DNA of 64,000 nucleotides from Cyanobacteria bacterium P01_A01_bin.123. Lineage in GTDB: Bacteria > Cyanobacteriota > Cyanobacteriia > Phormidesmidales > Phormidesmidaceae. Positions within the stretch are counted from its first letter, which is position 1; each line of letters opens with the position of its first letter. Positions 935 to 18,189 of the stretch are shown one piece after another. The stretch covers positions 128,001 through 192,000 of the forward strand of contig JBCBZT010000007.1 in the NCBI GenBank assembly GCA_039815185.1, written 5' to 3'. Under the pieces are notes generated by a model. The model was given only the letters and a program-made list of their open reading frames with translations, searched no databases and had not been told where the DNA came from. Position numbers and translations under genes: made by a program.

Positions 935-938
935 GCTG

Positions 939-1862
939 CTAGGCTACTCCCAAAACTAGGGCAAGAAGCGCCTTTTGGGCATGCATCCGGTTTTCAGCCT
1001 GATCCCAAATGCGAGAGGCTTTGCCCTCCATCACTTCAGCGGTGATTTCTTCGCCTCGATGGGCCGGAAGACAGTGGAGGATGATGGCATCTGGTTCGGC
1101 TTTGTCCAAGAGAGCCTGGTTGATTTGGTAGGGCTGAAACACGGGTAGGCGAGCATCTGCTAAATTTTCCTGGCCCATACTGGCCCACACGTCGGTATAG
1201 AGAATTTGAGCATCGGCAACGGCCGCTTTGGCATCGGTGATGACGCTTACCTTGCTGCGATCGCCCGCAAGTTTTTGCGCTTTTTCAAGTACGGTTGCGT
1301 CGGGTTCGTAACCTTTGGGGCAGGCAAGGCGGATGTTCATGCCGACTAGGGCACACCCCAGCATTAAAGAATGAGCCACGTTGTTACCGTCACCGAGGTA
1401 GGTCAGCGTCAGACCAGATAGGGTGCCAAATGCTTCTTGTACTGTTAGTAAGTCAGCCAAGATTTGGCAGGGATGTTCTAAATCGGTTAAAGCATTGATG
1501 ACCGGGATATCAGCGTAGTTAGCAAATTCTTGAATTTCTGATTGTTCAAAGGTACGAATGGCCACAACGTCTAGATAGCGGCTCAAAACCCGGGCCGTGT
1601 CAATCGTCGGCTCCCCCCGACTGACTTGGGTAACGCTGGTGTTCAAATCAAGCACCTGTCCCCCTAGCTGATACATCGCTACGGAAAAGCTAACCCGAGT
1701 TCTGGTGGACGCTTTCTGAAATAGCAACCCCAAAACCCGAGTTGGACATTCCGCCTGAACTTTGCCAGCTTTCATATCTGCTGCCAGTTGCAAAATCGAA
1801 TAGATTTCGTTGCTGTTGAGATCTGCCAGGCTTAGTAAATCCCGACCTTTCAAAGACTCCAT
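939..1862 (-). CDS. argF: Ornithine carbamoyltransferase
   Basis: STRTR, HPCQ, SMG and HCLP motifs; start taken at MESLKGRDLL. Confidence 0.97.
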   Translation of the reverse strand: MESLKGRDLLSLADLNSNEIYSILQLAADMKAGKVQAECPTRVLGLLFQKASTRTRVSFSVAMYQLGGQVLDLNTSVTQVSRGEPTIDTARVLSRYLDVVAIRTFEQSEIQEFANYADIPVINALTDLEHPCQILADLLTVQEAFGTLSGLTLTYLGDGNNVAHSLMLGCALVGMNIRLACPKGYEPDATVLEKAQKLAGDRSKVSVITDAKAAVADAQILYTDVWASMGQENLADARLPVFQPYQINQALLDKAEPDAIILHCLPAHRGEEITAEVMEGKASRIWDQAENRMHAQKALLALVLGVA

Positions 1863-2530
1863 AGTTATCCCTGATGTCAGCCATAAAAATAACAACCTAC
1901 CAGATTTTCCTTGACCCCACTGTAAAACTGCAAGCGTTCGCAGCGCTATCAAGCGGTGTCATCAGCAACAGCGGATCTAAAGGCGACTATCTCGACAGCC
2001 AATCGCGATCGCCGAGCCCCCGATATGCGGTATAACAGTCCTAGGTGCGGTATCGAATCAAGTTGTAGATCTACTTTTACCGAAGCATTATTCTTGTATG
2101 GAAAGCTTTCAGTTTTCCCCGGTTCTCATTTGCCAGAGGCTTCAGCAGTGGGTTAGTGGTGCTGCAGATGGTTTAGGTGGTTTGCAACCAGTTCAGGCAG
2201 CGATGTACCGCATCTCCCGCCAGAGGCATCTCAATCCGAGCCCAAGCATGGTGAATTCAAGTTCTTCGATTCTGAGGTCAAGATTAGGTTGTCATCGACA
2301 CATCAGGTTTTATCCTGTCTTGAATCCTTTGATAAGAGCACCATGGGTTCGCACAACGGGAGTTTCCCTGATTTTAGGTATAAGGCGTTTTAGACTAACA
2401 TCTAGAACGCTTTTTCTCAATTTAAGCGTGGCCCATCTAGCGTCAGAGGGTATGGATTTTGTGGGCTTCGACTCAACGCTTGGCGACGGCGCGGCTAGCA
2501 TCTGCTGTTATCGTTTGGGGTTGAGCGCTA

Positions 2531-4144
2531 TTGTCTGCTAGTTATCCCTTAACCCGGCATTTGGGTGGTGGGTCTTCGGGCTCAGCGCCACTCAGGCTCC
2601 TGTCTCCAACGCGTTCAGATGCGGCGACTGATCCTTATTGGTTGACGGATCAGATGCTGTTTCACTACCAGCGGTGTCCGCGACGGGCGTTTTTAGATCG
2701 CTATGGCGATCGCAGCCTACGTGATGCCCCTAGCGACTATCTGCAAAAGCTGAAACAAGATAGCGCTGACCACCGCAAACAAATTTTGGCCGATTATCAG
2801 CCCCTCCACTCTCCTCATTATCCCTTTCGAGATTGGCGAGCTGGCGCGATCGCGACAGCGGCATTAATGCAGCAAGGGGTTGACTATATCGGTCAAGGGG
2901 TTTTGATTGCTGAAACGGCAACTAACGTGGTTTTGGTGAGCAATCCCGATTTGCTGATTCGGATGCCGGGGGAGTCGATTTGGGGTGACTGGCAGTATAT
3001 TCCTGCCGATATCAAATTTGGCAAGAAACCCAAGCTGGATTATCAGATGGTCGCTGCCTTCCATGCCCTGGTACTGATGGATGGGCAAGGCACTTGGCCA
3101 GCGGCGAGCTGGTTGATTTTGCGAGAAGGCAAAAGTTATGCCATTGATTTGGATAAACAGTTGACGCGGTTAGACGAATTGCTCTATGCCTGCATTGAAG
3201 ATTTGCAGGACAGTGAACCGCCAGAGGTATTCATTGCCCATAGTCGTTGCGACTTGTGCCATTGGTTCAGCCAGTGTCATAGTCAAGCCAAGGCGACTAA
3301 GCATCTGTCATTGCTACCTGGCGTTACCCCAGCGCGATATGTACACTTGCAACGATTGCAGCTAACCACCGTTGCGGCCCTGGCCACGGCTCGCCCTGAG
3401 CAGCTTTCGTCTTTACCTGGATTTGGTGAACAGGTGGCTGAGAAAATTGTTCACCAGGCTCAGTCGGTGTTAAATGATACGGCGATTGCCCGGGTCTCTG
3501 TACACACCGCTCGATTCCCGCTAACGCCAGAGACGCTCCCCTCGGCAGCAGTAGAGCTGTATTTTGACATTGAAGCTGCCCCCGATAAACAGTTGATTTA
3601 TCTCCACGGCGTTCTAGTGGTTGATAAAGTCGCAAATACAGAGACCTTCCATCCGCTGTTAGCAGAACATCCCGAGCAAGAAGCTGAAGCTTGGACGGCA
3701 TTTGTGATGTTGATGCAGCAACATCCGACTGCGCCCGTTTATCACTTTTGCCCCTATGAAGCCCAAACGGTACGGCGTCTGGCGGCAGAATTTGGCCTCC
3801 CTGAAGGGGCTGACGTTGACCGCTTGTTGGATCGCTTTGTGGATGTCCACAAGTGCTTTACAGATGCTGTCACCCTGCCCACTGAAAGCTATGCCCTCAA
3901 GCACATTGCCCGCTGGATTGGATTTGACTGGCGCGATGCTGATGCCAATGGAGCTCAATCGATTTGCTGGTATGACGACTGGTTAACCACAGGCGATCGC
4001 CAGTATCTAACTGCTATCCTGCGCTATAACGAAGATGATTGTCGTGCAACCTATCAGATTAAAGAGTGGTTGGTCAATTTTGCTCAACCTTTCTGGGATC
4101 AAGATGGGGGTGATGATGTTGACGCAAGGGCGGATGGGGTTTGA
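2531..4144 (+). CDS. TM0106-family RecB-like nuclease with C-terminal RNase H-like domain
   Basis: YQRCPRRAFLD, PDLL...DIK, CDLC..C, YFDIE, YNEDDCRAT; start uncertain. Confidence 0.85.
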   Translation: MSASYPLTRHLGGGSSGSAPLRLLSPTRSDAATDPYWLTDQMLFHYQRCPRRAFLDRYGDRSLRDAPSDYLQKLKQDSADHRKQILADYQPLHSPHYPFRDWRAGAIATAALMQQGVDYIGQGVLIAETATNVVLVSNPDLLIRMPGESIWGDWQYIPADIKFGKKPKLDYQMVAAFHALVLMDGQGTWPAASWLILREGKSYAIDLDKQLTRLDELLYACIEDLQDSEPPEVFIAHSRCDLCHWFSQCHSQAKATKHLSLLPGVTPARYVHLQRLQLTTVAALATARPEQLSSLPGFGEQVAEKIVHQAQSVLNDTAIARVSVHTARFPLTPETLPSAAVELYFDIEAAPDKQLIYLHGVLVVDKVANTETFHPLLAEHPEQEAEAWTAFVMLMQQHPTAPVYHFCPYEAQTVRRLAAEFGLPEGADVDRLLDRFVDVHKCFTDAVTLPTESYALKHIARWIGFDWRDADANGAQSICWYDDWLTTGDRQYLTAILRYNEDDCRATYQIKEWLVNFAQPFWDQDGGDDVDARADGV

Positions 4145-4174
4145 GGAAGCGGTAACCTGCTGGCATCCAGCATC

Positions 4175-4206
4175 CCGAAGTCAGCCTCTACCGAAGTCAG
4201 CCTCTA
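4175..4206. repeat. Perfect 16-bp tandem duplication (CCGAAGTCAGCCTCTA x2)
   Basis: Read directly from sequence. Confidence 0.9.
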
Positions 4207-4536
4207 AAAGAGATAGACTGATAGTCTCCGAAGACAAGCACCCAGCAAGAAAAGAGATCACTCATGGCTTTAAAAATTGAGAATTCGGGAAAAAGCTATT
4301 CTTCTAAGTTCTGATTTCTAGATTTTTGTGACGCCTTGCCTAGACAAAATCATTTGGCTTCAGTTGATCCCCCTTGATCGGCTGGGCAGTTTCGTGAACA
4401 GTTGGGAAACCTTAAACTTAGACTGAACTTGAATTAGCCTGCTGTTATTGTTTCGGGATCGCTTGGAACTTTGCAGGCTAGGGTAAGTCGAGCAGTATAG
4501 CAATGTCATTGTCCATCAGTGGGCATCTAGAATGCG

Positions 4537-7164
4537 GTGGCTCAAGAGTTTCACATTTCAATCACGACCGTTGGGGAAGCGAAATACCTGATTCGCACAG
4601 AGCAGGTTGAACCTGGTGTTCCCTTAGCTGAGACCCAATTAATTTGGGATGTGGAGACTTGGCTAGAACAGGCACAACGGCTAATGCATGGCCCGTTGGC
4701 TAGGCTTTTGCAGGGGTCATCAAAATCATCTGGTCTGCGATCGCCTACGGATTTTTCTGAATCCGATTTGGCTCCTGAATTGCTTGACCCTAGCGTTATG
4801 ACGCTGGGCAAGCAGCTCTACGATGCCTTATTTCAAGACTTGATTCGAGATAGTTGGGTGACAGCCCAAGGTGTCGCTCAAAATCGCCGCCAACTGCTCC
4901 GGTTACGGTTGGGGATTAAAGATCATCGCCTACAACATCTGCCTTGGGAAGTCATGAATAGCGGTGATCGCTCTCCCATCGCCACGGGAACTAACCTCAC
5001 ATTTTGTCGTTATCATCCCAACTTGCTAACCCCATTGCGGGCTGTTACGTCGTCCCAAAAACAGGCTCACCAACTGATTCAAGTTTTGATGGTGGTGGCA
5101 GGGCCTGACGACCAGGAAAGACTGGCTTTGAGTCGCGAAGTCCGGCAGTTGCAGCAAGAACTGGGCCGATCTGATCAGAGTCAGCGTCGACCTAATGCGA
5201 TCGCAAATGCAGTGCCTATCCAGGTCACCCTCTTAGAACAACCGGGCCGCACTGAACTTACCCAAACCCTAGAACAAGGTCACTTTCACGTGTTGCACTA
5301 TGCTGGTCACAGCAACCTGGGTGAAACGGGGGGAGACTTATACCTAGTGAGTCGTCAAACGGGGTTGACTGAGCGTTTGAGCGGTGACGATTTAGCGGGT
5401 TTGTTGGTCAACAACGGAACTCAATTAGCCATTTTCAATTCTTGTCGCAGTGCCTATGCTACGGCTGCAGATATTGCGGGCTGGCGAGAACAGAACTTAG
5501 CCCAGGCTCTAGTGAATCGTGGGGTTCCTGGGGTGATTGCCATGGCTGAGCGTATTCCCGATGAGATTGCAATTACCTTCACCCAATTGTTTTACCGGAA
5601 CCTGAAGGCTGGTTACACCATCGATCTCAGTCTGAACCGCGCCCGACAAGCATTGCTGTCTGTGAAAGGGTCAGATCAGGTGTATTGGGCATTGCCTGTG
5701 TTGTATATGCAGCCTGGGTTTAACGGCTATTTGGGTGAGTCGGATCCAGCGTCAGATTTACTCCATTCACTGCTTGAAGATGATGGGGATGAGTTGTGGT
5801 CAGATGAGGCAGAAATTTCTGACGCGATACCGTCTGTGGTGGTTGCTCGACCGAACCAGTTAGATGATCGTGATCTGCCCTCTTTGGGTGGGTTGGACGA
5901 GGGTGATGATGATTTTTGGGATGATGATGAAGAAATCGATTTAGACGCGATCGCCGATACCCTAGATGCCACTGCCGACGAAGAATATGCCGAAGATAGT
6001 GCCTTTGTTGGCAGCATTATGCAACAGCTAGCCAATCCGGCTACCGCTGCCGCCTTGGCTTCAGCTCCCCCCGGTGACTCGCTACAGAGTGATTCTTTGC
6101 GCAATGAAGCCTTACAGTCGGATAACATCACGTCACGGTCGATTAGCAGTTATGCTCAGCCCACCAGCAGTCCTGATCGAGCGGCTGGTGACCCAGCCAT
6201 GACTGGTAGTCAGGCAACCCTCCAGACGTCAGACTTACCCCGACCCTCCGTTAGTAGGGTGTCTCAACAGTCAACCTTTGTTGAACCTGATTTTTCGACC
6301 CCGCATCCCCGCTCCACCCCAAACTTCACGCGTTTGTTGAGGCGTTTTTCCCTCGGTAACTCGGCCCAGCCCTGGTTATGGCTGGCGTTAGGGATGGTAG
6401 CTGTAGGGTCTGTGGTTGGGGTTAGTCGTCTCAACAGACCGAAGCAAACTGAGCTGTTCCCAGCACCCGTGCAGAGTGGTGGTGGTCTTGCTGAAGCAGT
6501 GCTCGCATTGAAACGTGATGACTTGGTGGCAGCAACCAACACAATAGAATCTTTGTTAGACAGCGATCAGCTATCCATTGCGCAAGAGGCGCTTGATGCT
6601 GCTTCACCCAGGCAGCTTACCAACCCTGAAATTCTCTATCTCCGAGGTCGATTGCAGTGGCAACAGGGGCAAAAAGACAACCTTGATTTTGATCTGAATG
6701 ATGTCTTGCGATCTTGGCAACAGGCTGTCGCAGACACTCGAAAGACCAAGGAAACCTTAACCGCGCGTGTTAACTACAATACCGCTTTGGGATTTGCTTA
6801 CTATGCCCAAGGCGATTTCCCTGCGGCAGTTGACACCTGGAAGGAAGTGATTAGGTTAAACAATGAACGATACCGCCAATTGGCCCCAGACGGATCGGAT
6901 GAGGATTTTGCTGTTCAAGAACTTCCCTTTGATGCCTATGCAGGCTTGGCGATCGCGCTTTACAACATGGCTCAAACAACACCCGATCCGAATCAGTCTG
7001 ACTTTATCAGAGATGCTCGCAAATCTTACTGTCTAGTCGTGACCAGCGATCCAAGTCGATTTGGGACTGCAAGCGGGTTGAGCGGTGACTCAAATTGGCT
7101 ATGGGGGCCAGCGCAGATCAAGGATTGGCAAACGATTGGGCCAAAGCTGGCAAGTTGCCAGTAA
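4537..7164 (+). CDS. hetF: HetF-like CHAT (caspase-HetF) protease with acidic linker, TM helix and C-terminal TPR-like region
   Basis: N-terminus QEFHISIT...YLIRTE...PGVPLAE; catalytic HYAGHS and FNSC; TM WLWLALGMVAVGSVVGV. Confidence 0.85.
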   Translation: MAQEFHISITTVGEAKYLIRTEQVEPGVPLAETQLIWDVETWLEQAQRLMHGPLARLLQGSSKSSGLRSPTDFSESDLAPELLDPSVMTLGKQLYDALFQDLIRDSWVTAQGVAQNRRQLLRLRLGIKDHRLQHLPWEVMNSGDRSPIATGTNLTFCRYHPNLLTPLRAVTSSQKQAHQLIQVLMVVAGPDDQERLALSREVRQLQQELGRSDQSQRRPNAIANAVPIQVTLLEQPGRTELTQTLEQGHFHVLHYAGHSNLGETGGDLYLVSRQTGLTERLSGDDLAGLLVNNGTQLAIFNSCRSAYATAADIAGWREQNLAQALVNRGVPGVIAMAERIPDEIAITFTQLFYRNLKAGYTIDLSLNRARQALLSVKGSDQVYWALPVLYMQPGFNGYLGESDPASDLLHSLLEDDGDELWSDEAEISDAIPSVVVARPNQLDDRDLPSLGGLDEGDDDFWDDDEEIDLDAIADTLDATADEEYAEDSAFVGSIMQQLANPATAAALASAPPGDSLQSDSLRNEALQSDNITSRSISSYAQPTSSPDRAAGDPAMTGSQATLQTSDLPRPSVSRVSQQSTFVEPDFSTPHPRSTPNFTRLLRRFSLGNSAQPWLWLALGMVAVGSVVGVSRLNRPKQTELFPAPVQSGGGLAEAVLALKRDDLVAATNTIESLLDSDQLSIAQEALDAASPRQLTNPEILYLRGRLQWQQGQKDNLDFDLNDVLRSWQQAVADTRKTKETLTARVNYNTALGFAYYAQGDFPAAVDTWKEVIRLNNERYRQLAPDGSDEDFAVQELPFDAYAGLAIALYNMAQTTPDPNQSDFIRDARKSYCLVVTSDPSRFGTASGLSGDSNWLWGPAQIKDWQTIGPKLASCQ

Positions 7165-7170
7165 CCCTGA

Positions 7171-7650
7171 TCAGGACACTTTAACCAGCACTAAATCGCC
7201 GTCAATTTTGGCTTCAAATACGTCAAGGGGTGATTCTGCGGGGCCTGCAGTGACGCTGCCATCAGGGTTAAACTTTGACCCGTGGCAGGGGCAAGCAAAG
7301 ACAGAAGTGCCATCCCACTCGACAGTGCAGCCTTGATGGGTACAGAAGGAATTGACGGCGATTATTGATGCGTTGTCTGTGGGGTCGCGGATGACGGCCA
7401 CTTGCTCTCCCTGAAAGGATTTGTCAGCAACAAATCCCATCTCATCCAATTCCGCGACGGTGCCGACAGCGGCAAATCCGTCTTCACGCGGCGTCGAGTC
7501 AACCTCGGTAGGCTCAGCAGCGGTTTCGTTCTCAGTCTCGCCTTCTGGGGCAGAAGCGGTATCGTTAGGTTGACAGGCCGCGATCGCGACGGGTAACGAA
7601 CTCGCTAATACGCCTAATCCGACCCAGTTGATAAATTCACGTCGTTTCAT
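7171..7650 (-). CDS. Rieske [2Fe-2S] protein, Tat-exported lipoprotein (PetC3-like)
   Basis: MKRREF Tat motif, IAAC lipobox, CTHQGC and CPCHGS. Confidence 0.92.
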   Translation of the reverse strand: MKRREFINWVGLGVLASSLPVAIAACQPNDTASAPEGETENETAAEPTEVDSTPREDGFAAVGTVAELDEMGFVADKSFQGEQVAVIRDPTDNASIIAVNSFCTHQGCTVEWDGTSVFACPCHGSKFNPDGSVTAGPAESPLDVFEAKIDGDLVLVKVS

Positions 7651-7663
7651 CGATTTTCAAACC

Positions 7664-9379
7664 CTACAAATTTTCAGCCGGTGCTAAAGTGCCCGGACGC
7701 CGCAGCCAGCCATGATGACGTGCTGCCGCGATCGCCACAAACAAAAGATCCACACCCACTACGCCAGCAATCAGCAGCTCGGATCCGCCTGTGCCGAAGC
7801 CGTAACTGTGCAGCCCTGTACCTAGCACAAAGTTCACCCCATACCAGGCCATGAGCACAGCATTGAAGGCAACCACGCTAGCCACGTTGATGCCAAAATC
7901 GCCAATCCAGCCCACGAGGCGACCATGCAGGGGAGCCAAATAGCACAGTAGGGCAATCAGCGCCCAAGTTTCCTTAGGATCCCAACCCCAGAAGCGTCCC
8001 CAGGAGAAGTGGGCCCAGATGCCGCCGAGAATAATCCCTGCTGTCAGCAATAGCACGCCTACCTGCAACACTCGATAGTTCAGTTGCGACAGGGTTTTGA
8101 TGCGCTGCTTAGCATCGGCGGCAAACAGGTAGTTCCCCAGGGCAACATGACCTAGCCCCAAGGCCAGGGCGAAGCTGGCATAGCTCAGGGCAATCGTGGG
8201 GACGTGGATACTCAACCAGAAGTTATCTCGTAGCACCGGCACCAGTGGGGCAATGCTGGGGTCAAGTACGGCAGGCAGACTATCTGCCAACAATAAACAC
8301 ATGACTGACAAGGGTGCGGCTGCCAGCAGGTAGTAGCGAGCCCGGGAAACGAGTTCAAAAGTAAGCGCGATCGCCGCGATGCCAAACCCAACCCAAACCA
8401 CCGACTCATACATATTGGTAACTGGAGGGCGACCGGCAATCTGCATGCGCAAAAAGAAACCATAGCTTTGCACCCCAATGCCCGCAGTAAATAGGCCAAT
8501 GGCGCTCCAGTAAAGATTCCAGTTACTATCTCGGGCGTTTATCAAGAGGCTAACCAACAAAATCCCAAACGCCAGCCCATAGAGCCACCAGGCCTTAGCA
8601 AAAGGATGGAAATGGTTAAAGTGCACTTCCCGCTGTAGAACAGCATCGGTGGGATAGATTGCGGGACTGAGCTGCTGTAGGCTCGCCTTTAGTTCAGCGG
8701 CAAATGCCCCCACCATTGGTACATGGGTAATGCCACCATTGAGTAGCGTTTGCTGCGTCATGGCAAACTGAGCTATCAGCGGCGCCACAGTTTCTGGCGC
8801 GTAAAGCTGCTGGGCATCATTCAATCCGGCCCATTTGCCCTTGATGTCATCAGGGTGGGGCACGATGGGCAGATTGTTATCGCCAACGGATTGATACAGC
8901 AGGTTAAGGCGATCTTCAATGGTCAGTGCTTCGCGCTCATCGCGGTCGAGCGCTTCGTCGTTGAGCGCCTTTTGATGGGCTTGGCGTACGATCGCGCTCA
9001 AATCCTTATTGGTCATCAGCTCTCGAAACGTGAAATGCTTTCGTTCTAAATCAAGACCGACCGCTGCTTTCAGGGGGCGATAACTGACCAGTACAAAGGG
9101 TTCCTCGTTCCAATTGCGGTTGTTTAGCCACATCCCCAAGAAGGTGCTGAGGTAGTCCTCTTTTTCACCGTCAGCCTGTTTGTAGGTGGTGGCACCGTGA
9201 ATTTTAGCGACGGTTTCTTTGGCCACAGTGTCTAGGGGCTTTTTGCGTCCGTCAAGCTGTACGGCTAGGGTTCGCAATTCCTCCAAACCATCAGGCTGAA
9301 ACTGGCTCAAGGGCATCAGCAATAAGATGCAGCCCAGGCAGAAGCCCACGAAGAATTTAATCAGGTTTATACCTTTCAT
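7664..9379 (-). CDS. ccsA: System II cytochrome c synthase CcsA/ResC-like, with large N-terminal soluble domain
   Basis: WGRFWGWDPKETW WWD motif, PPVTNMYES, WLSIHV, GLHSYG. Confidence 0.93.
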   Translation of the reverse strand: MKGINLIKFFVGFCLGCILLLMPLSQFQPDGLEELRTLAVQLDGRKKPLDTVAKETVAKIHGATTYKQADGEKEDYLSTFLGMWLNNRNWNEEPFVLVSYRPLKAAVGLDLERKHFTFRELMTNKDLSAIVRQAHQKALNDEALDRDEREALTIEDRLNLLYQSVGDNNLPIVPHPDDIKGKWAGLNDAQQLYAPETVAPLIAQFAMTQQTLLNGGITHVPMVGAFAAELKASLQQLSPAIYPTDAVLQREVHFNHFHPFAKAWWLYGLAFGILLVSLLINARDSNWNLYWSAIGLFTAGIGVQSYGFFLRMQIAGRPPVTNMYESVVWVGFGIAAIALTFELVSRARYYLLAAAPLSVMCLLLADSLPAVLDPSIAPLVPVLRDNFWLSIHVPTIALSYASFALALGLGHVALGNYLFAADAKQRIKTLSQLNYRVLQVGVLLLTAGIILGGIWAHFSWGRFWGWDPKETWALIALLCYLAPLHGRLVGWIGDFGINVASVVAFNAVLMAWYGVNFVLGTGLHSYGFGTGGSELLIAGVVGVDLLFVAIAAARHHGWLRRPGTLAPAENL

Positions 9380-9420
9380 GGTTAATGGCTAAATCGTCAA
9401 TGGACGGTAGGAATGGATGA

Positions 9421-9496
9421 CTAAACCACATCCGATTTGAAACTTGGAGTTTTAGCTCAAGGAAAAACTATGGATCTGGATGTGGACACGGTTTGA
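9421..9496. repeat. Short dispersed element with CCACATCC/GGATGTGG inverted ends; related copy at 37845-37936
   Basis: Reverse complement aligns by eye with 37845-37936. Confidence 0.65.
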
Positions 9497-9512
9497 AAAG
9501 AGAAGACGAGGT

Positions 9513-11324
9513 TTATTTACCAAACACAGCCAAAATCGGAATTGTGGCCGCGTCTTCATCTGTGGAGATTTCAGTTTCAGGGACTTCAACCCCAAGGACT
9601 TCAGCTTCAGGCGATTTTCGATTAGACAATCGTCGATATTTTTTGACTAGTCCAGGCCCATAGAACATCACACCAATGCCCAAGACTATCATCAGCGAAC
9701 CACTCCAAGTCAGCGCCGTTACCCACCAGGGTTCGCGCTTGAGTTGCAGGGTAGATTGCTGCAAATCACCAGGGTTCCAAGACGCTTGGGCCAGCTTCCA
9801 ACCCCGAAACCAAGTCGGATGGTTCATCCAAACAGACCGATGTACGGCGGTGTCAGTTTGCGGATCGAACAGCGTCACGTTGCTCGTCCACATCGCAACG
9901 GACTCACTGCCCTCGTTACGTTCCACAATGAAGTCGTTGAGTTTGACGTAAAAAGGCAGCTGTAGCAGCTTGGGGCTAAAGGCAGTGAAGTAATCCCCCG
10001 AAGCGGTTTCTAAGTGGGTGGGTTCACCCCAGGGGAGCCAAAAATCTTGACCATCGGCTGTTGCAACCTGTAGCGCTGGCGATCCTTCGTTCGCCAGTGT
10101 GCCATCAGCTACGGGAGCCATTGGCACGACCTGTCGCTGTACCTGAGCCCGATCTAACTGCTGAGTGACCGAAATCTGAAAGTCTGCCCAACCGGGCGCG
10201 ACGGGTTGACCTGCCTGCAATTTCCCAGACTTGAAACCTTTAGAAGACCGAGCCGCATAAAAGAGCTGATGGTCAGCAGCAGCAACGATGCGAAAGTAGT
10301 CAGCGTCGTCAATCGGGGGCGCGTTGTAATGAACCGTTAGGGCAATGTCATCCCCGGTGCGCACGGTATCCAACCCAGGCTTGGCAAAAACGAACCAACG
10401 GGCTTGGGAACTTCCCTGAGTCAATGCTAGCTGTACGGCTGGGTTGCGAAACTGGCTAGAAGCTGATGTCGGTTGATTATTAGCCCCTAAGCGGAAATCG
10501 GGCCAGACGTTGACCACTTCGACTGTGGTGCCGTTCTGCATTTGTAAAGATCGGCCCAGCTTTTGGTTCACATCTACGACGGTATCGCCAATCTGCAGGG
10601 TCCCAAAGTCTGCGAAGGAGTCTTGGGGAGGACTGAGTAACTGCTTCAGTTCTGCTGCGTTCTCAGCTTGGACAATTTCTAAATGGGCTGGGCCGATATC
10701 CATTTGGCGATAGCCTGTAGGGGCTATGGCTAACCAGCGGTCTAAGGTTTGCCCCATGCGATCGCTGTGGAGCCTCACCTGCACTGCCAGATTGTCTACC
10801 ATCCCTTCATTGGTGAAGCGGACGGTTTTAATGGCGCGATCGCTATATCCCAGTAAAGACAAGCCAGCAAACGTTTGGGGATACACTGTGCCATTGGGCT
10901 TAATGAACACATCTGTTTGCTGTTGTAATTGATCAGGGGCGACAACTTCCATTAATTCGCCTGCGACTCGGATTTGGTTGTTTGGGCCGCTGTCGGTGCG
11001 TACTAACAACATACCTTCAGTACTGAGGTGGATGACAGCGGCAGAGCCTGCAATGATTACAATCAAACCCCAGTGGGTTAGGGCAAATCCGACCTTGCGG
11101 GGGCCTCGCCAAGGGAAACGACTGAGGGTAGAAATGCCTAAGTTGACGGCCAAGAGAAACATCAACGCACCAAACCAGACGCTCTTATAAATTTCCCTTT
11201 GAACTGTGGCTGAGCCAACTGTCGATTCATAAAATGTGGCTCCAATTAGAATAGCTGCGATCGCAACCAGCAAGGGCACCGCTAGTCTAATAGAACCTAA
11301 AAACCGCACGAAATTAGATGTCAT
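9513..11324 (-). CDS. CcsB/ResB-like cytochrome c biogenesis protein
   Basis: Three N-terminal TM helices with THWG His, large soluble domain, MNHP motif, C-terminal TM; adjacent to ccsA. Confidence 0.85.
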   Translation of the reverse strand: MTSNFVRFLGSIRLAVPLLVAIAAILIGATFYESTVGSATVQREIYKSVWFGALMFLLAVNLGISTLSRFPWRGPRKVGFALTHWGLIVIIAGSAAVIHLSTEGMLLVRTDSGPNNQIRVAGELMEVVAPDQLQQQTDVFIKPNGTVYPQTFAGLSLLGYSDRAIKTVRFTNEGMVDNLAVQVRLHSDRMGQTLDRWLAIAPTGYRQMDIGPAHLEIVQAENAAELKQLLSPPQDSFADFGTLQIGDTVVDVNQKLGRSLQMQNGTTVEVVNVWPDFRLGANNQPTSASSQFRNPAVQLALTQGSSQARWFVFAKPGLDTVRTGDDIALTVHYNAPPIDDADYFRIVAAADHQLFYAARSSKGFKSGKLQAGQPVAPGWADFQISVTQQLDRAQVQRQVVPMAPVADGTLANEGSPALQVATADGQDFWLPWGEPTHLETASGDYFTAFSPKLLQLPFYVKLNDFIVERNEGSESVAMWTSNVTLFDPQTDTAVHRSVWMNHPTWFRGWKLAQASWNPGDLQQSTLQLKREPWWVTALTWSGSLMIVLGIGVMFYGPGLVKKYRRLSNRKSPEAEVLGVEVPETEISTDEDAATIPILAVFGK

Positions 11325-11682
11325 ATCTCGCCCTCAATTGCGATCAGAATTAGGCCTAAAGTGCATTCAACCAGAATCCCTGGAGATTAAAAGCGCATTT
11401 GTATCGTCGGATTCAAAAAAAACAGCTTTATGCAATAAACGAATAAATTTAATGCTTGATCTGCATTGATTTATCCTGCCAATAAAATAGGCCATAGCTT
11501 AGATCTAAAATAAATTGTCCACAGAGAAAAATAAAATCTGTGCTTTTCGCTACGAATTTTAGTGATTTAAGTCTTTGTTTTATCTATTTGAGTCCGCGAT
11601 CTTATGAGGTCTAAGAACAAAATCTTCCTATGCAAAAACGTCATTGATCTGGTGCGTAAAACGAATTGACAGGTTTGTTTTA

Positions 11683-11724
11683 GTATTTGGAGCTACAAAA
11701 TAACTTGATTTATCCCCATAGTCT
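11683..11724 (+). promoter_or_regulatory. NtcA-activated class II promoter motif (GTA-N8-TAC, 22 nt, TA-N3-T)
   Basis: GTAtttggagcTAC at 11683-11696 in A/T-rich flanks; TAGTCT at 11719-11724. Confidence 0.65.
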
Positions 11725-12018
11725 GAACAATGTTTACGGTATCTCGTGTAGTTCAAGTATGTCTTGAAAGTTAGATTGTTCTGAAATCTTGAATCATTTC
11801 CATCCACCCATGACATCAAGATTGTGGATCGTGATTGCAGCTGCTTTTAGGATCTGTGTTCTTTTGATTGACATTGGCGGTTGTACTAAATCGTCTCTGA
11901 CGAATGGCTTTTTCAGGTTAATTGTCTCAATGGAATGGGTTGGAATTTAGTCAGCCCTTGACTACTTAAAGATTGCCTAGACTCTGTGTGTTTATTTGCT
12001 AGGAGCTGTGAAAAAAAC

Positions 12019-13062
12019 ATGACCGCAAATCCTGATGCAACGTCCCAAGAAGTTGGGCTGCAGGTTGAGCTACTGGAAGACAGTTTCGAGCTGGTAAAGC
12101 CTCAAGCTCAGGCATTCTCAGTTAGCTTTTATGAAAACCTGTTTGCCGACTATCCAGCGGCTCAGCCGCTGTTTACAAGCACCAATATGGCTGAGCAAAG
12201 CAATAAGCTGCTGACCTCCCTGGTGTTTGTCGTTGAGAATTTGAAAAGGCCTGAGGCGCTCACTGAAGCGCTGAAAGGCTTGGGCGCGCGTCACGTCAAG
12301 TACGGCGCGCTTCCTGAGCACTACCCTCTAGTTGGCAATACCCTACTCAAAACCTTTGAGCAGTATCTGGGTGCAGCTTGGACGTCTGATACGAAGCAAG
12401 CTTGGGTAGATGCTTACAGCGTGATTACAGAAGTGATGCTGGATGGCGCTGATTATTCTCAAGACGACGTACAGCTAGGTGCTGACGCCGCGGATAATTT
12501 GGATGCGGTGGATGAAGCCACTGGACTCAAAATTGCTTTGCTAGAGCAGAGCTTTGAAAAGGTAAAACCCCACGCGAACGATTTCGTCACCAGTTTTTAC
12601 GGCAATTTGTTTACTGATTATCCAGCGGCCAAGCCCCTGTTTGCCCACACCAATATGAAGGAGCAGGGTAATAAGCTGCTGATGTCTTTGGTGTTTGTGA
12701 TTGAAAATTTGCGTAAACCTGGTGAGTTGACCGGGGCTTTAAAAGGTTTAGGGGCGCGTCACGTCAAGTATGGGGCCCTGCCTGATCACTATCCTCTGGT
12801 GGGTAACTCTCTGCTCAAAACCTTTGAACAATATTTGGGTGCAGATTGGACTGCCAGTACCAAGCAAGCCTGGGTTGATGCCTACGGTTTGATTACAGAA
12901 GTCATGTTGGAAGGGGCTGACTATTCCCCTGAGTCGGTGCAGCTTGAGTCTGCCACATCGGCTGGTGTGGAGAAGCCTGAGGGCAGCATCGGTACCGGGA
13001 CTGCGGCAGGCATTATTGGGGGCAGTGCTCTCCTTTTGGTGCTGCTAATTCTGCTGGTGTAA
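12019..13062 (+). CDS. Tandem two-domain globin (flavohemoglobin/Vgb-type globin folds) with C-terminal membrane anchor
   Basis: Two near-identical repeats FY.NLF.DYP...EQ..KL...LGARHVKYG; hydrophobic C-terminus; AGGAG at 12001-12005. Confidence 0.9.
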   Translation: MTANPDATSQEVGLQVELLEDSFELVKPQAQAFSVSFYENLFADYPAAQPLFTSTNMAEQSNKLLTSLVFVVENLKRPEALTEALKGLGARHVKYGALPEHYPLVGNTLLKTFEQYLGAAWTSDTKQAWVDAYSVITEVMLDGADYSQDDVQLGADAADNLDAVDEATGLKIALLEQSFEKVKPHANDFVTSFYGNLFTDYPAAKPLFAHTNMKEQGNKLLMSLVFVIENLRKPGELTGALKGLGARHVKYGALPDHYPLVGNSLLKTFEQYLGADWTASTKQAWVDAYGLITEVMLEGADYSPESVQLESATSAGVEKPEGSIGTGTAAGIIGGSALLLVLLILLV

Positions 13063-13092
13063 ACGCTGAGACGAACTGAGGATATAGAGTCG

Positions 13093-13740
13093 ATGGCGTT
13101 GAATGGAGGTCGTTCAGTCAATTGGCGTTCGTTTATCAGCCTGAAAACGGCGATCGCGATCGCTTGTATTGTCCTAATTGGCTGGTTTGCAGCAGCTTTT
13201 GCGATGGATAATAAGCAGGTGTTTCTACCCGGGGAAACCTCGGTGGGGCACTATCTGTTTGAAACCTCCTGCAATTCCTGTCACGAGGGCTTCAAGCCAG
13301 TCTCAAATGATACATGTATGCGCTGTCATGAGGCTGAGTTGGTCGAGGATGAACACGGGACTCAGAAGTTTTTGGATCCCCGCTGGGCTGAAGACTTGGC
13401 CAAGCTCGAGGTGCTGACCTGTACGACTTGCCACAACGAGCATGTCCACATGTTCGGTCGGGGCGTCAACCTCCAGCCTGACATTTGTATGACCTGTCAT
13501 GAGGGCATCATTACCGGTGACCTCAAAAGTCATGACGGCTTTGCTGCCGATGGCTGCTGGACTGCCGGATGTCATAACTATCACGATCATCGTTCTATTT
13601 CCACAGGTTTCTTGCGTCAAAACCTTGATCAGCCGCCAATGCTACCCGTACAGCAACTCCCAAATCGGGTTGTGTTGAGCGAATTGGATGCCGCACCTAA
13701 CCCAGATCTTGCCCAGGAATTCTTGGGAGGTAGCTTGTGA
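13093..13740 (+). CDS. Pentaheme c-type cytochrome (4 CxxCH + 1 CX4CH), N-terminal signal/TM
   Basis: CNSCH, CMRCH, CTTCH, CMTCH, CWTAGCH. Confidence 0.9.
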   Translation: MALNGGRSVNWRSFISLKTAIAIACIVLIGWFAAAFAMDNKQVFLPGETSVGHYLFETSCNSCHEGFKPVSNDTCMRCHEAELVEDEHGTQKFLDPRWAEDLAKLEVLTCTTCHNEHVHMFGRGVNLQPDICMTCHEGIITGDLKSHDGFAADGCWTAGCHNYHDHRSISTGFLRQNLDQPPMLPVQQLPNRVVLSELDAAPNPDLAQEFLGGSL

Positions 13741-14546
13741 AGTTCTTGCTCCCATGGATGTTGGCTATTGTGATGTTATTTGGCTGGGCAGCTCCTGCTT
13801 GGAGCGATGGTGTTGATCAGGCCAAGCTGGATGAAAGTACTCAATTATGGCGGAGCAGTGCCCATGCACTAAATGACGTGAACTGTTCTAGTTGTCACCA
13901 GAATACCGAGACCCAAACATTTGTAGCCCGTCCCAACCACGAAAGTTGCCAGTCTTGCCACGAGCAATCGGTGGATACCTTTTTATTGGGTAAACATGGC
14001 ATTCGCCTACTAGAAGGTGAACCGCCATTGACGCCATCGTTAGCGCGATTACCCATGCAGCCTGATGCCCATGATTTGCAAATGACCTGTGCGACCTGCC
14101 ACGATGCCCATTCTGTGAATACGGTGCAGGCAGCTGTAGAGTCTTGCCTGACCTGCCACGCTGACACCCACTCCTTAAACTACGAAAATTCTAGCCACGC
14201 TCAACTGTTTGCCGATGATCGCAACTTACCTCGGCCATCAAGCAGTTCGGTGAGCTGTGCTACCTGTCACTTGCCGCGCCATGAAGTGAAGCGCGGAGAG
14301 ATCATGACCGCCTTAGTGAATCACAACAATACCTATACGCTGCTGCCGCGCGATCGCATGGTGCAGGAAGTGTGTATGAACTGCCACGGCGTTGAGTACA
14401 GCTACAACAGTATTTTTGACGACGACTTGGTGGAGTCCAACTTTGATAAACCCCCCACCTTATCCCTAGAGACCTTTGATCTGGTGCGCGACCTAGAGAA
14501 TCGCCGCGGCGGTCAGCCTGATGCGGCCCCTGACGACAGTGAATAA
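13737..14546 (+). CDS. Hexaheme c-type cytochrome with HAO-family-like motif spacing, Sec signal
   Basis: CSSCH, CQSCH, CATCH, CLTCH, CATCH, CMNCH; GTGA overlap with the upstream gene. Confidence 0.9.
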   Translation: MKFLLPWMLAIVMLFGWAAPAWSDGVDQAKLDESTQLWRSSAHALNDVNCSSCHQNTETQTFVARPNHESCQSCHEQSVDTFLLGKHGIRLLEGEPPLTPSLARLPMQPDAHDLQMTCATCHDAHSVNTVQAAVESCLTCHADTHSLNYENSSHAQLFADDRNLPRPSSSSVSCATCHLPRHEVKRGEIMTALVNHNNTYTLLPRDRMVQEVCMNCHGVEYSYNSIFDDDLVESNFDKPPTLSLETFDLVRDLENRRGGQPDAAPDDSE

Positions 14547-14669
14547 GGCTAGGGCAAGGCCTTCGTCAAACCTCCCGTTCGGTTTACGAACATGGCTTAT
14601 GCCATCTGATCACAACAGTACACGTGTAAACGCAATGCAGTTCACGCTTTCAAGAAGGAGACCCTGTCA

Positions 14670-15323
14670 ATGACACTTGTAAATCGATGGATGAGTACCC
14701 TCCGCACCCGCACTGTGGCATTTATTGCCATTGTGTTGGCGATCGCGGTTACGGCTGTTTCTTGCAGCGGTGGTGGTACCACAGCCCAAGCACCTGCGGG
14801 CGTTGCTCCCGACTTAGTTGCTGACTATATTCACACTGTGCTTGCAGCTGATCGCACGGCTTACACCAAGCACGTGGTTAACCGCTCCCAAACATTAGAA
14901 GGTAAAGCCAAAGAAGACGGCGTCTTGGCAGTTGAGGCTACCGAAGGCTGGCAGCAAACGGATGGTATTCCCCTCCCAGCTCAGATGTTCCGTTTGGGGT
15001 CTGAGATTGCCAATGAAGCAGGCTACTTTACCTACAACCTGATTTCTCCCTGGTACATCAATGACAACCATGCCCCCAAGGGTGAATTTGAAGAAAGTGC
15101 GATTCAAACCATGATCGATTCTGGAGAACCGGTCAAAGATTACCAGGAAGTTAACGGGCAGCAGTTTTTCTCAGCCATGTACCCTGACAGGGCCGTAGCT
15201 GAAGCTTGTGTCACCTGCCACAACGAGCACCCCATTCACCTAGAGCGCTATCCCGACAAACTGTTTGTCATGGATGAAGTGATGGGCGGTGTTGTGATTA
15301 ACATCCCCCTTGAGGGAGCGTAA
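14670..15323 (+). CDS. Tll0287-like (DUF3365) monoheme c lipoprotein
   Basis: AVSC lipobox, PLPAQM, YPDRAVAEACVTCH, VMGGVVI; AAGGAG RBS. Confidence 0.8.
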   Translation: MTLVNRWMSTLRTRTVAFIAIVLAIAVTAVSCSGGGTTAQAPAGVAPDLVADYIHTVLAADRTAYTKHVVNRSQTLEGKAKEDGVLAVEATEGWQQTDGIPLPAQMFRLGSEIANEAGYFTYNLISPWYINDNHAPKGEFEESAIQTMIDSGEPVKDYQEVNGQQFFSAMYPDRAVAEACVTCHNEHPIHLERYPDKLFVMDEVMGGVVINIPLEGA

Positions 15324-15354
15324 GCGCTAGTCATCCAGCGCTGGCTGATGGGGT

Positions 15355-15381
15355 AATAGGGGTGATGCGATCGCCCCTATT
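15355..15381 (+). terminator. Stem-loop after the Tll0287-like gene (terminator or processing site)
   Basis: AATAGGGGTGAT-gcg-ATCGCCCCTATT, 12-bp stem with one G-U. Confidence 0.6.
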
Positions 15382-15652
15382 GCTTGAGTAGAAGTCCAGC
15401 AGTCTTTATTCAATTGGTTGCTACACGGGGTCATATCAGCATTGGGATGACCGACGGCTTGTAGAAGCGTTGTTAAAAATACGACATCTCTGCTGCCAGC
15501 CTTGTTGTATAAAGTTAAGTAAAGGGCTGTTCTGCAACCAGATCTGATTTGAAACCTTTGGTTTCTGGGTTCAGCGAAAGCGATGAACCCCAGATACTGT
15601 AAGAGATTTAGTCTTCTAGCCTTGATACCAATTTTTGATTCTCCCTAGGGTA

Positions 15653-16390
15653 ATGAGCCAATTTAGCCACCAACATCACGCGCTCGACTCCCAAGACTCA
15701 ATCAGACCCAGTCTTGATGCCGACACTCCAGCGATGCCGATGCCAAATATGGAAGCAATCGCTCCTCAGCGACGGTCGCCCCTGAAACCCCGTGGGGTTC
15801 AGCCTGGTTTCAAAGTCCTGATTGGCTTGACGCTGCTAACGGCTTTACTGCTGTTACCGTTTGCGTTTAGCCAGGGTTATCTCGACTGGTTACGGGCTCA
15901 GTCTTTTGATCTACATCGCTTTTTGCGAGGGGAGTGGTACAAGCAGATCACAGGCTTTACGGCTTTAACCTTGGTCTTATTGGAAGTGATGCTGACGGTG
16001 CGTAAGCGCAGTCGTAGCTGGATCGGCCGGATCAGAATTCCAGGGTCTATGCAACTTTGGCGCAGCATCCACATCTTTGTCGGCGTGGGATTGGTTGGGT
16101 TGGTCTTGATCCACACGATGGGGGCCAACGGTCTCAATTTTAACGCCGTTTTTCTTTGGGTGTTCTTTGCTACGTCCCTCACTGCGCTGGTTGGGGTTGT
16201 GGCTGAAACCGGCATTTTAGAGTCTACCCGCAACTATTTTGGCAAAATACCCGGCAGCGACAAAATTTTGACTAAAGGCCCTTTGATCCGTGGACTCAGG
16301 GCAGTGTGGCTCGTCAGCCATATTTTCTTTGTCTGTGTGTTTGCTGTCATGCTGGTGTTTCACATTATCCTGGCTTACTACTTCCAGTGA
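15653..16390 (+). CDS. Polytopic membrane protein, predicted bis-His di-heme b (cytochrome b/ferric-reductase-like)
   Basis: About 5 TM helices; two carry H-X13-H pairs (HIFVGVGLVGLVLIH, HIFFVCVFAVMLVFH). Confidence 0.7.
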   Translation: MSQFSHQHHALDSQDSIRPSLDADTPAMPMPNMEAIAPQRRSPLKPRGVQPGFKVLIGLTLLTALLLLPFAFSQGYLDWLRAQSFDLHRFLRGEWYKQITGFTALTLVLLEVMLTVRKRSRSWIGRIRIPGSMQLWRSIHIFVGVGLVGLVLIHTMGANGLNFNAVFLWVFFATSLTALVGVVAETGILESTRNYFGKIPGSDKILTKGPLIRGLRAVWLVSHIFFVCVFAVMLVFHIILAYYFQ

Positions 16391-16473
16391 TTACTGCCAC
16401 TGAGGATTTTCGTTGTGGCTTGAGTGGATGACAGCTTTACCTAAGTTAATCATGGTCAAATCAGGGGAAACAT

Positions 16474-16977
16474 ATGACTGCGGATCGGTTGACTGAAAAC
16501 TTGGTGAAGCGCCAAAAGAGTCTGATTGCGATCGCAGTAGTGGTTATTTTCGCGATCGCGGCTGTTTTCCTCACCCGGCCTCAGACCTCTACCACTGGTC
16601 TTTCGCCGGTGTCTGGCTTAATCACGCTCAAAGCTTCAGCCCAGTCGGCCATCAGCTATGACTTAGCCATCGCGAATGGCAATCCCACACTGGTTGAGTT
16701 TTATGCCGACTGGTGTACCACCTGTCAGGCTTTGGCCCCTGCCTTACAAGCGGTTCATCGCCAGTTTGGTTCAGATCTCAACTTGGTCATGCTCAATATT
16801 GATGATCCCCAGTGGCGATCGCAGATTCAGCAGTTTCGGGTAAGCGGAGTGCCCCACCTCGTTTTACTCAACCCTGACCAAGCGATCGTCGATAGTTTTA
16901 TTGGTGACGTCCCTCGCCAAGTCCTGGCCAGCCGTATTGAGGAGATCGTGGCGGATGCTACACCCGTCTCCCTTTAA
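16474..16977 (+). CDS. Membrane-anchored thioredoxin (TxlA/HCF164/CcsX-like)
   Basis: N-terminal TM, EFYADWCTTC, GVPH. Confidence 0.88.
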   Translation: MTADRLTENLVKRQKSLIAIAVVVIFAIAAVFLTRPQTSTTGLSPVSGLITLKASAQSAISYDLAIANGNPTLVEFYADWCTTCQALAPALQAVHRQFGSDLNLVMLNIDDPQWRSQIQQFRVSGVPHLVLLNPDQAIVDSFIGDVPRQVLASRIEEIVADATPVSL

Positions 16978-17265: not shown

Positions 17266-18189
17266 TCACGATATATTGAGTGCGCCGTTTCGCCGAAGCC
17301 ACTGCTTTTGCTCACGAGATAGACCAGTGGTGTCGGTGAATAAAGCCCCTTCTACCCGGCAATGGTCAAAACAGGCACCGTTGAGCTGAGCGTTTTCTAG
17401 ATTAGCCTCACGCAGGTCAGCACCGCTGAAATTAACGTCGCTGAGATTGGCGTACTCCAGGGTGGCATTGTAGAGTGAGGCTCCCTGTAAATCAGCTTCT
17501 ACCAGCACTGCATGCCAAAAATCAGCCCAGTCTAACTGGGTCTGTCGCAGGGTTGTTCCCGTTAGGTCAGCTTGCTCAAATTTAGCGCTGAGTGCATTGG
17601 CCTCCGACAGGTTAGCCCCCACTAAAATTGCCCCGGTTAAGTCAGCCTGAGTTAAATCAGCAGCAACAAAAGCAGTACCTGAGAGAGTCGCTTGCTGCCA
17701 CTGCGACTGACCCAACTGTGCGCCTTCAAAACTCGATTGGCTAAAGTTAGTCCCGGTCAATTGTGTCGCGACGAAACTGGCATATTTGAAGCGAGATTGA
17801 GGCCCACTGGCAGTACGGCAATCGGCTCGATCTAGGCGGGCATAGGAGCCATCGATATGGTCTAGGCAGGCCCCATAAAGTTGAGCGCCAGCAGCCTGAA
17901 CCCGCTGAAAATTCACTGCTGCTAAATTGGCCTGGGTTAAGACAGCGTGGTTGAGATCAGCTGCCTCTAAGCAACTCCCAGATAAATCTGCGAGAGTCAG
18001 TGTTGCATAGGACAAGTTAACGCCACGACAGGACGACCAGTTTAAGCGCGTGCGTCTCAAATAAGCTTCTGGGAAATCTCCCTGATCCAGGCAGGCTCCA
18101 CTTAAATCTATGCCGCTCAGTTCAGCCTTGCCTAAAGACTGGCCTGCTTGTACTCGAGCCAAAACGTCAGAAATAGTGAGTTGAGCCAT
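17266..18189 (-). CDS. Pentapeptide repeat protein
   Basis: A(D/N)Lxx repeats throughout. Confidence 0.93.
   Translation of the reverse strand: MAQLTISDVLARVQAGQSLGKAELSGIDLSGACLDQGDFPEAYLRRTRLNWSSCRGVNLSYATLTLADLSGSCLEAADLNHAVLTQANLAAVNFQRVQAAGAQLYGACLDHIDGSYARLDRADCRTASGPQSRFKYASFVATQLTGTNFSQSSFEGAQLGQSQWQQATLSGTAFVAADLTQADLTGAILVGANLSEANALSAKFEQADLTGTTLRQTQLDWADFWHAVLVEADLQGASLYNATLEYANLSDVNFSGADLREANLENAQLNGACFDHCRVEGALFTDTTGLSREQKQWLRRNGALNIS

Follow-up and report, generated by a model that had tools for sequence, protein, structure and literature searches.

A conserved multiheme cytochrome and globin gene module of cyanobacteria with a contextual link to nitrogen

What might a cyanobacterium do with an island of multiheme cytochrome genes, when to our knowledge the characterised cyanobacterial c cytochromes are monoheme? 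The question is raised by Cyanobacteria bacterium P01_A01_bin.123 (assembly GCA_039815185.1), in whose contig JBCBZT010000007.1 a stretch of 64,000 nucleotides (positions 128,001 to 192,000, forward strand; the window) was analysed. The island studied occupies positions 7171..16977 of the window (9.8 kb) and comprises nine genes in two divergent runs. Seven of these genes are co-conserved throughout the cyanobacterial loci compared, and a link with nitrogen is well supported by context. Tentatively, and with somewhat less than even confidence, the module is read as an NtcA-controlled accessory of nitrate assimilation, which would handle NO and nitrite on both sides of the cytoplasmic membrane.

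Gene content, conservation and spread

Families were assigned by Pfam and NCBIfam profile searches, and all nine open reading frames (ORFs) proposed by a first-pass annotation were confirmed in position, strand and expected family. Translation of the globin probably starts at ATG 12019, and that of the membrane protein at ATG 15653. The features are:

7171..7650, minus strand: small Tat/lipoprotein Rieske [2Fe-2S] protein (PF00355; CTHQGC / CPCHGSKFN), accessory
7664..9379, minus strand: large CcsA-type (System II) heme lyase, dedicated copy (PF01578; TIGR03144 below cut-off)
9513..11324, minus strand: ResB/Ccs1-like System II subunit (PF05140)
11683..11724, plus strand: NtcA class II promoter motif (GTA-N8-TAC at 11683-11696, 22 nt, TAGTCT at 11719-11724)
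12019..13062, plus strand: tandem flavohemoglobin-type globin with C-terminal membrane tail, without signal peptide (two PF00042 domains)
13093..13740, plus strand: c5, pentaheme cytochrome c with N-terminal hydrophobic helix (four CxxCH and one CX4CH)
13737..14546, plus strand: c6, exported hexaheme cytochrome c (six CxxCH)
14670..15323, plus strand: stand-alone Tll0287-like (sCache_heme) monoheme lipoprotein (PF11845, one CxxCH), hereafter the Tll-like or heme-Cache protein
15653..16390, plus strand: five-helix membrane protein with two His pairs (H146/H160, H229/H243), predicted di-heme b
16474..16977, plus strand: membrane-anchored thioredoxin (WCTTC; PF00085), accessory

The twelve c-heme motifs counted in the first-pass annotation were recovered, although not all as CxxCH, eleven being CxxCH and one CX4CH. 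c5 and c6, whose reading frames overlap by 4 nt, are the only ORFs with more than two CxxCH across the 8.09-Mb genome. The island is ordinary for its genome, since its GC content (50.7% versus 50.2%) and HIP1 density are near the genome values; with 14 HIP1 sites per 9.8 kb when overlaps are counted (13 without), against a genome mean of 11.1 and quartiles of 8-14 over 762 stretches of equal size, the HIP1 richness claimed earlier was not seen. To call the island 'self-contained' was also too strong, as its nine genes encode neither an electron donor nor CcdA/DsbD. Rfam gave no match at the gathering score in the window or in the Acaryochloris marina locus (L027), and a sigma-70/terminator scan gave no useful information.

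A c6 pattern scan of genome contigs recovered 46 loci, 45 of the cyanobacterial type (44 titled cyanobacteria) and one from Sulfuricaulis; carriers include Acaryochloris marina MBIC11017, Spirulina subsalsa, Roseofilum and Pleurocapsa. Co-occurrence was counted in the 23 cyanobacterial-type loci with enough flank on both sides. The genes for the globin, c5, c6, the Tll-like protein, the membrane protein, CcsA and ResB were all present in 23/23, in agreement with the earlier proposal of a heme conduit that spans the membrane and is encoded with genes for its own maturation. The Rieske and thioredoxin genes are accessory members, each present in 18/23, so that the expected synteny of the whole cluster holds for seven genes and not for these two. 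The order globin-c5-c6-Tll-membrane is constant, and the ccs block shifts and inverts between loci. c6 was detected in 39/301 sampled genomes of the class and in 15/41 relatives. In a quick tree of 50 c6 rows, a branch with SH-aLRT 100 separated the 31 cyanobacterial-type rows, which grouped by genus, from the rest; the simplest explanation, though not a proven one, is that the module was acquired once, long ago, and lost many times. The tree, together with the ordinary GC and HIP1 values, favours the long residence suggested earlier.

Outside the cyanobacteria the two multiheme cytochromes occur as one protein: c5 aligns to the N-half and c6 to the C-half of an 11-heme protein of other bacteria (Sulfuricaulis, locus L043, 451 aa). 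Scoring of 8,000 candidates gave at least 3,215 relatives of this fused protein with E <= 1e-20, and all 120 listed carry ten CxxCH and one CX4CH without CxxCK; it was present in 4/401 genomes of the sampled phylum. The fused-type set consisted of 81 loci (L043 and the best 80 of 409 metagenome matches), 20 of them well flanked (>= 6 kb on both sides). These 20 all contain the membrane domain, a BFD domain and the Tll-like gene, with a NirB-like FAD domain in 19 and a globin in 17. The L043 run is ANTAR regulator, globin, reductase/membrane protein, 11-heme protein, Tll-like protein, nrtA, nrtA, nrtB, nrtC/D, nirB and nirD-like gene, which places the module within nasT-…-nrtABC-nirBD. Genes for NrtA, NrtB, NasT or NirB lie near 14/20 well-flanked loci and near 30/81 overall, mostly short loci; in L072 the module adjoins NIR_SIR and molybdopterin reductases.

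Further observations were made at these loci. An exported protein of ~500 aa, possibly an outer-membrane barrel, is encoded beside nitrate-uptake genes in L066 (12339-13838) and nine other loci; a probable member of this family (L072:6528-7982) had no Pfam match at 1e-8. In L091 (12910-19016), which has no nitrate genes, the flanks of the module carry CP_ATPgrasp/Alpha-E genes together with an NtrC-like sigma-54 regulator and may point to nitrogen control.

Probable nitrogen control and transcript data

Upstream of the globin gene, GTATTTGGAGCTAC (11683-11696) is followed after 22 nt by TAGTCT (11719-11724), in accordance with the class II NtcA promoter, defined as GTAN8TAC, about 22 nt and TAN3T (PMC3898017). 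The genome contains 21 exact class II motifs, including that of the island and one before nirA (contig C67); both promoters have the same layout, with an A-rich run after the box. The nirA-narB genes themselves are located on contig C67, away from the island. The promoter scan covered 32 upstream regions, namely that of the window and those of 31 loci; 14 other loci were dropped because they lacked the required 620 nt of upstream DNA. A perfect NtcA box was found in 17/32 (1.54 expected), a perfect box with -10 element in 9/32 (0.23 expected), and a box with -10 element and one inner mismatch allowed in 22/32 (0.97 expected from shuffles), counts which are not independent because the loci are related. 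Judged by this motif, the module may be under NtcA control. No conserved small ORF was found in the globin leader.

In one genome without the module (no c6 match; G038, L136:637-8110), a single globin gene, its product 61% identical to the island globin domains, directly follows nrtABCD-narB. The link with nitrogen and NO that the first-pass annotation had drawn is thus strengthened by the NtcA motif, the nitrate-gene neighbours, the fusion of the membrane domain to NirB-like FAD and BFD domains, and this globin after narB.

Two genes of the module have transcript data in a cultured strain, A. marina MBIC11017 (PMC5295598 Table S3). In control, microoxic and hyperoxic cultures the values were 109/42/215 for the globin AM1_4406 and 416/70/1567 for the Tll-like AM1_4409, the latter 3.8-fold up in hyperoxia. 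Since both decrease under microoxia and increase under hyperoxia, anaerobic respiration is argued against, and the pattern fits a globin that uses O2. The 5' leader of the globin gene (AM1_4405; L027:7863-8250) gave 10120/1755/8134 in the same table, ~100-fold above globin mRNA in the control (10120 vs 109), an excess that suggests attenuation or a small RNA. RNA libraries of four studies contain the A. marina stretch, whole or in part, as contigs; of four that were aligned, two bridge the region and two span it piecewise. Such contigs reveal neither co-transcription nor transcript level and may stem from DNA, and they were not used.

The predicted electron path and its components

In the proposed mechanism, the tethered tandem globin would be a cytoplasmic NO dioxygenase (NO + O2 -> nitrate), giving nitrate back to NarB/NirA. 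Within a predicted complex, a low-potential cytoplasmic donor would pass electrons outwards over two b hemes and the eleven c hemes of c5 and c6 to the heme-Cache lipoprotein, which would reduce a periplasmic N-oxide, most likely nitrite or NO. In cyanobacteria this donor is probably ferredoxin; other bacteria would use NAD(P)H, by way of the flavin/[2Fe-2S] domains fused to the membrane protein.

The four His of the membrane protein, two pairs with a spacing of 14, are invariant in 22/22 sequences, and the protein is a putative di-heme b carrier. Matches of these 22 sequences to cytochrome b561 (12/22), DUF4405 and ferric-reductase families were weak and none was above cut-off; PF01794 (ferric reductase-like) matched only 2/22, with a best E of 0.03. 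The cytochrome b/b6 families of Pfam/NCBIfam gave no match, a PDB sequence search with the membrane domain gave none, and the ESM Atlas returned unnamed clusters only. Carriers of the NOX, ferric-reductase and MsrQ type likewise have two helices bearing two His pairs with a spacing of ~14 and, like the relatives from other bacteria, an NAD(P)H-flavin fusion; the present family differs from them in its intervening [2Fe-2S] domain, its multiheme cytochrome partners and the lack of any family model at cut-off.

In fused-type bacteria the membrane domain forms the C-terminal part of a reductase with NirB-like FAD/NAD(P)H and BFD [2Fe-2S] domains (20/20 well-flanked loci; BFD in 20, NirB-like FAD match in 19), and a soluble donor is therefore indicated. 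In L070, L078 and L126 the fusion partner, as read from the sequences, is an FNR-type reductase with cNMP-like domains; the donor module seems to have been exchanged independently there, yet remains NAD(P)H-type. As cyanobacterial NarB and NirA stand in place of NADH-linked enzymes, the donor of the cyanobacterial module is probably ferredoxin. The net charge of the cytoplasmic loops was +8 to +14 in 12 stand-alone membrane proteins versus +2 to +9 in 10 fused ones, more basic loops without the reductase being as expected for an acidic docking partner.

In the three donor variants (L070:1764-4790, L078:2454-5477, L126:7376-9943) the membrane domain is fused to repeated cNMP-binding-like domains, BFD and the FNR-type reductase. 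L078 encodes a tandem globin, and the Tll-like protein is doubled in L126, where genes for a multiheme protein of 965 aa, a monoheme cytochrome and a TonB-dependent receptor lie upstream of the module (709-7108).

The CX4CH of c5 is CWTAGCH, at residue 155. Additional invariant His number five in c5 (alignment with the L043 11-heme protein) and six in c6 (50 sequences); these eleven are enough for bis-His ligation of all eleven c hemes, which is probable, and two more non-motif His are kept by the fused forms. An AlphaFold model of the L043 11-heme protein had a pLDDT of 79.5, the N-half (c5) being poor (about 36-69). Foldseek gave no match for this model at E <= 0.001, the poorly modelled c5 half being barely probed. 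With VIA, residues 207-427 (the c6 half) aligned to HAO, hydrazine dehydrogenase (HDH) and 4qo5 with Z 8.6-9.6 (8.6-9.4 for HAO/HDH, values that the tool's own note rates middling), over ~190-200 residues at an rmsd of 3.6-4.3 A in most rows. The c6 half therefore resembles the scaffold of HAO, HDH, octaheme nitrite reductase and NrfA (1fgj, 4fas, 6h5l, 6hif, 4qo5, 2ot4); c6 differs from that superfamily in having six hemes instead of eight, a much shorter chain and a five-heme, CX4CH-bearing N-half joined to it.

In a profile of the middle region, hemes 3-4 of c6 align to residues 232-282 of HAO 1fgj (also to 6h5l). The HAO CxxCH preceding those residues, which we take to be catalytic heme 4, has no counterpart in c6, and the linker at this point has zero Cys in 97/97 matched fused proteins (of the 120); c6 thus shares the HAO/HDH scaffold without catalytic heme 4 and the eight-heme set. 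The CxxCK catalytic heme of NrfA and octaheme nitrite reductase is found neither in c5 and c6 nor in any of the 120 fused proteins, and TIGR03152 scored 15 bits in cluster proteins against a cut-off of 692. An HAO scaffold without its catalytic heme, together with eleven bis-His candidates, makes c5 and c6 read as an electron wire, presumably non-catalytic. The names 'NrfA' or nitrite reductase given in databases to 11-heme proteins (P0040, P0056, P0063, P0074) are likely misannotations, which could mislead gene counts for dissimilatory nitrate reduction to ammonium.

The Tll-like lipoprotein scored 67 bits with PF11845 (cut-off 24.1), and its model matches the Tll0287 structure 5b82 (E 4e-6); an ESM Atlas search gave Tll0287-like clusters only. 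Its 25 invariant positions across 33 sequences, many of them polar, exceed the need of a plain carrier and make it a candidate for the end point and reactive end of the wire. Tll0287 and other stand-alone sCache_heme proteins share with it the Pfam family, the fold, the single CxxCH and the lack of a signalling domain. The His/Cys ligation of Tll0287 does not apply, an additional Cys in the core before CxxCH being present in 0/44 sequences; a Met is found instead at the conserved PAQMFR position in 41/44 (sometimes Phe/Val) and is a candidate ligand only. Unlike other stand-alone members, it has a constant genetic partner in the 11-heme protein. What stand-alone sCache_heme proteins do is called open in bioRxiv 10.64898/2026.02.01.703092, and the module offers them a concrete partner.

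Both globin domains have single-domain hemoglobins and flavohemoglobins as closest PDB sequence matches (3s1i, Vgb 1vhb, 1cqx) and carry Tyr/Gln/His at what we assume to be positions B10/E7/F8; the protein is predicted to be cytoplasmic. PF00042 globins were detected in 39/39 c6-carrier genomes and in 5/29 non-carriers. The hydrophobic C-terminal tail is present in 36/39 cyanobacterial loci with this globin gene versus 0/42 globin ORFs of fused-type loci; the globin is thus tethered where the fused reductase has been lost. L010 (12594-13124) and about ten further loci (L003, L004, L014-L016, L018, L020, L023, L045, L046) encode another globin between the membrane gene and the thioredoxin/Rieske genes; it is ~175 aa long, untethered, has a conserved tail at its C-terminus and is absent from the window.

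A dedicated ResB/CcsA/thioredoxin set would mature the twelve c hemes, CX4CH site included. The genome has a second CcsA of 354 aa, of housekeeping type, on another contig (C43), and the island CcsA has a full-length 29% match to the CcsA beside the fused-type module of L095. The WCTTC thioredoxin, with weak DsbE/ResA/TlpA matches besides PF00085, is probably the apocytochrome disulfide reductase of the set. NrfI and CcsA1 of Wolinella are likewise second, enlarged CcsA/ResB proteins beside multiheme clients, one with a non-canonical motif; here the odd motif is CX4CH, and client specificity is putative. The Rieske protein is below PetC cut-offs and 44% identical to another small Rieske protein on contig C41.

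Competing readings and known systems

The nearest precedent for a nitrate-assimilation role is narK-bjgb-flp-nasC of Bradyrhizobium, a NasST-controlled nitrate-assimilation operon with a globin and an NAD(P)H flavoprotein, proposed to remove NO from nitrate reductase (PMC4724949). The island shares with this operon the flavohemoglobin-type, single-domain globin, here in doubled and tethered form; it encodes no flavoprotein and carries a control motif of the NtcA type. Flavoprotein and nitrate-operon location, absent from the island, are found in fused-type relatives such as L043. As described in that source, Bjgb-Flp lacks the di-heme membrane domain, the 11-heme wire, the heme-Cache protein and the maturation genes; if the module merely removes NO, it would be an extended Bjgb-Flp system.

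Several points weigh against the nitrate-assimilation reading. Bradyrhizobium achieves NO removal with globin and reductase (PMC4724949), and 14 extra hemes are unexplained by that precedent. A catalytic site was not found: the wire lacks the catalytic heme of HAO/NrfA, and the one stand-alone sCache_heme protein characterised in bioRxiv 10.64898/2026.02.01.703092 is redox-like (123 mV) and binds NO weakly. A NarB-like gene does not discriminate (37/39 module genomes versus 24/29 others), and the basic loops suit the acidic globin as well as ferredoxin. By the queries used, 6/20 well-flanked fused-type loci have no nitrate genes, and 3/20 lack the globin; the count of 14/20 with nitrate genes stands without a background rate for comparison. 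Ten of the 32 upstream regions, from related loci, have no class II motif, and the start predicted for A. marina (4432802) is ~14 nt past the class II position, which would be about 41.5 nt from the box centre. The response to O2 could be indirect, because glnA likewise drops in microoxia (453/203/460) and both O2 treatments slowed growth. The differential table of that study (PMC5295598) does not list c5, c6, the membrane gene or the ccs genes.

Other nitrogen partners were considered and rejected: nifH was above cut-off in 13/39 genomes with the module versus 12/29 without, and NO synthase in 1/39 versus 1/29. A PF00115 search of the own genome for a NorB-like heme-copper protein gave two full-length CoxA-like matches only.

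Electrons might also flow inwards: the heme-Cache protein would oxidise hydroxylamine, or an N-O compound of the oxime type, to NO, and the electrons would pass over the wire and the b hemes to re-reduce the globin, which would convert this NO to nitrate for assimilation. The HAO-derived scaffold of c6, the many invariant polar residues of the Tll-like protein, as in a substrate pocket, the rise of both A. marina transcripts with O2 and the gain of the globin tail where the membrane protein has no fused reductase would agree with this, as would class II NtcA promoters, which mark genes scavenging traces of combined nitrogen (PMC3898017). The reading is nevertheless unlikely: the HAO catalytic heme is missing, NAD(P)H-flavin/BFD modules of the NirB/NorW type are established as donor modules, bis-His c hemes usually have low potentials, and there is no substrate evidence. 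Less likely again is an electron valve that passes surplus reductant to periplasmic O2 in a NOX-like manner, or stores it on hemes, under nitrogen limitation or high O2, with the globin buffering O2. His-pair spacing recalls NOX and ferric-reductase domains, the Tll-like gene responds to hyperoxia, and the characterised sCache_heme protein autoxidises rapidly to superoxide (bioRxiv 10.64898/2026.02.01.703092); NOX, however, requires no 12 c hemes, and neither the position of the module inside nitrate-uptake operons of heterotrophs nor the globin-narB link would be explained.

The first-pass annotation had also considered extracellular electron transfer and a quinol - di-heme b - Rieske - multiheme route for anaerobic N-oxide respiration, and both have lost ground. 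A multiheme wire with a ferric-reductase-like membrane domain, in carriers that by record titles include mat, sediment and soil cyanobacteria, could serve Fe(III) or other metal reduction, iron uptake for the enzymes of nitrate assimilation, or current. We hold this to be very improbable, given that the nine genes include no porin, beta-barrel, outer-membrane cytochrome or decaheme partner of the MtrCAB kind (a genome-wide porin search was not made), that MtrC/DmsE matches were far under cut-off (DmsE 43 bits versus 192), and that the promoter motif is NtcA-type and expression goes down in low O2. The quinol-oxidising, bc-like unit ranks last and is about as improbable in our judgement. In its favour are the Rieske gene beside most full cyanobacterial loci and the weak cytochrome b561 matches of the membrane protein, but the Rieske gene is absent from 5/23 fully flanked loci, including both of Acaryochloris, and had no match in 84 fused-type loci. 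Thus an obligate Rieske protein and a cytochrome b/b6 partner, typical of bc1/b6f-type complexes, are lacking, neither CxxCK nor HAO heme 4 is present, the fusions imply a soluble donor, and the globin and Tll-like genes are down in microoxia.

No description of the cluster was found in the literature, subscription journals and bioRxiv supplements being outside the reach of the search, and the portions available of PMC7344198, PMC7096707, PMC12875742 and PMC8940962 contained nothing relevant to it. The architecture is apparently undescribed, while every part has known relatives. More speculatively, and on balance doubtful, the module could represent a cross-phylum N-oxide salvage pathway, in which catalysis would take place at the periplasmic heme-Cache protein, at the end of an 11-heme wire derived from HAO and coupled across the membrane to ferredoxin or NAD(P)H and to the globin; external nitrite, NO and hydroxylamine would be interconverted and their nitrogen assimilated by aerobic cyanobacteria and heterotrophs. 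If so, about one in eight sampled cyanobacterial genomes would have a photosynthesis-coupled multiheme conduit. The module is also a candidate route for photosynthetic electrons across the cytoplasmic membrane, of relevance to NO/nitrite cycling in mats and to biophotovoltaics.

Two neighbouring genes border the island. A CHAT and TPR protein with a long acidic linker (window 4537-7164) converges on the Rieske gene and is outside the module. A pentapeptide-repeat gene (~307 aa, window 17266-18189) follows the thioredoxin gene, and in A. marina a similar gene (L027:6761-7687) separates ccsA from the globin gene.

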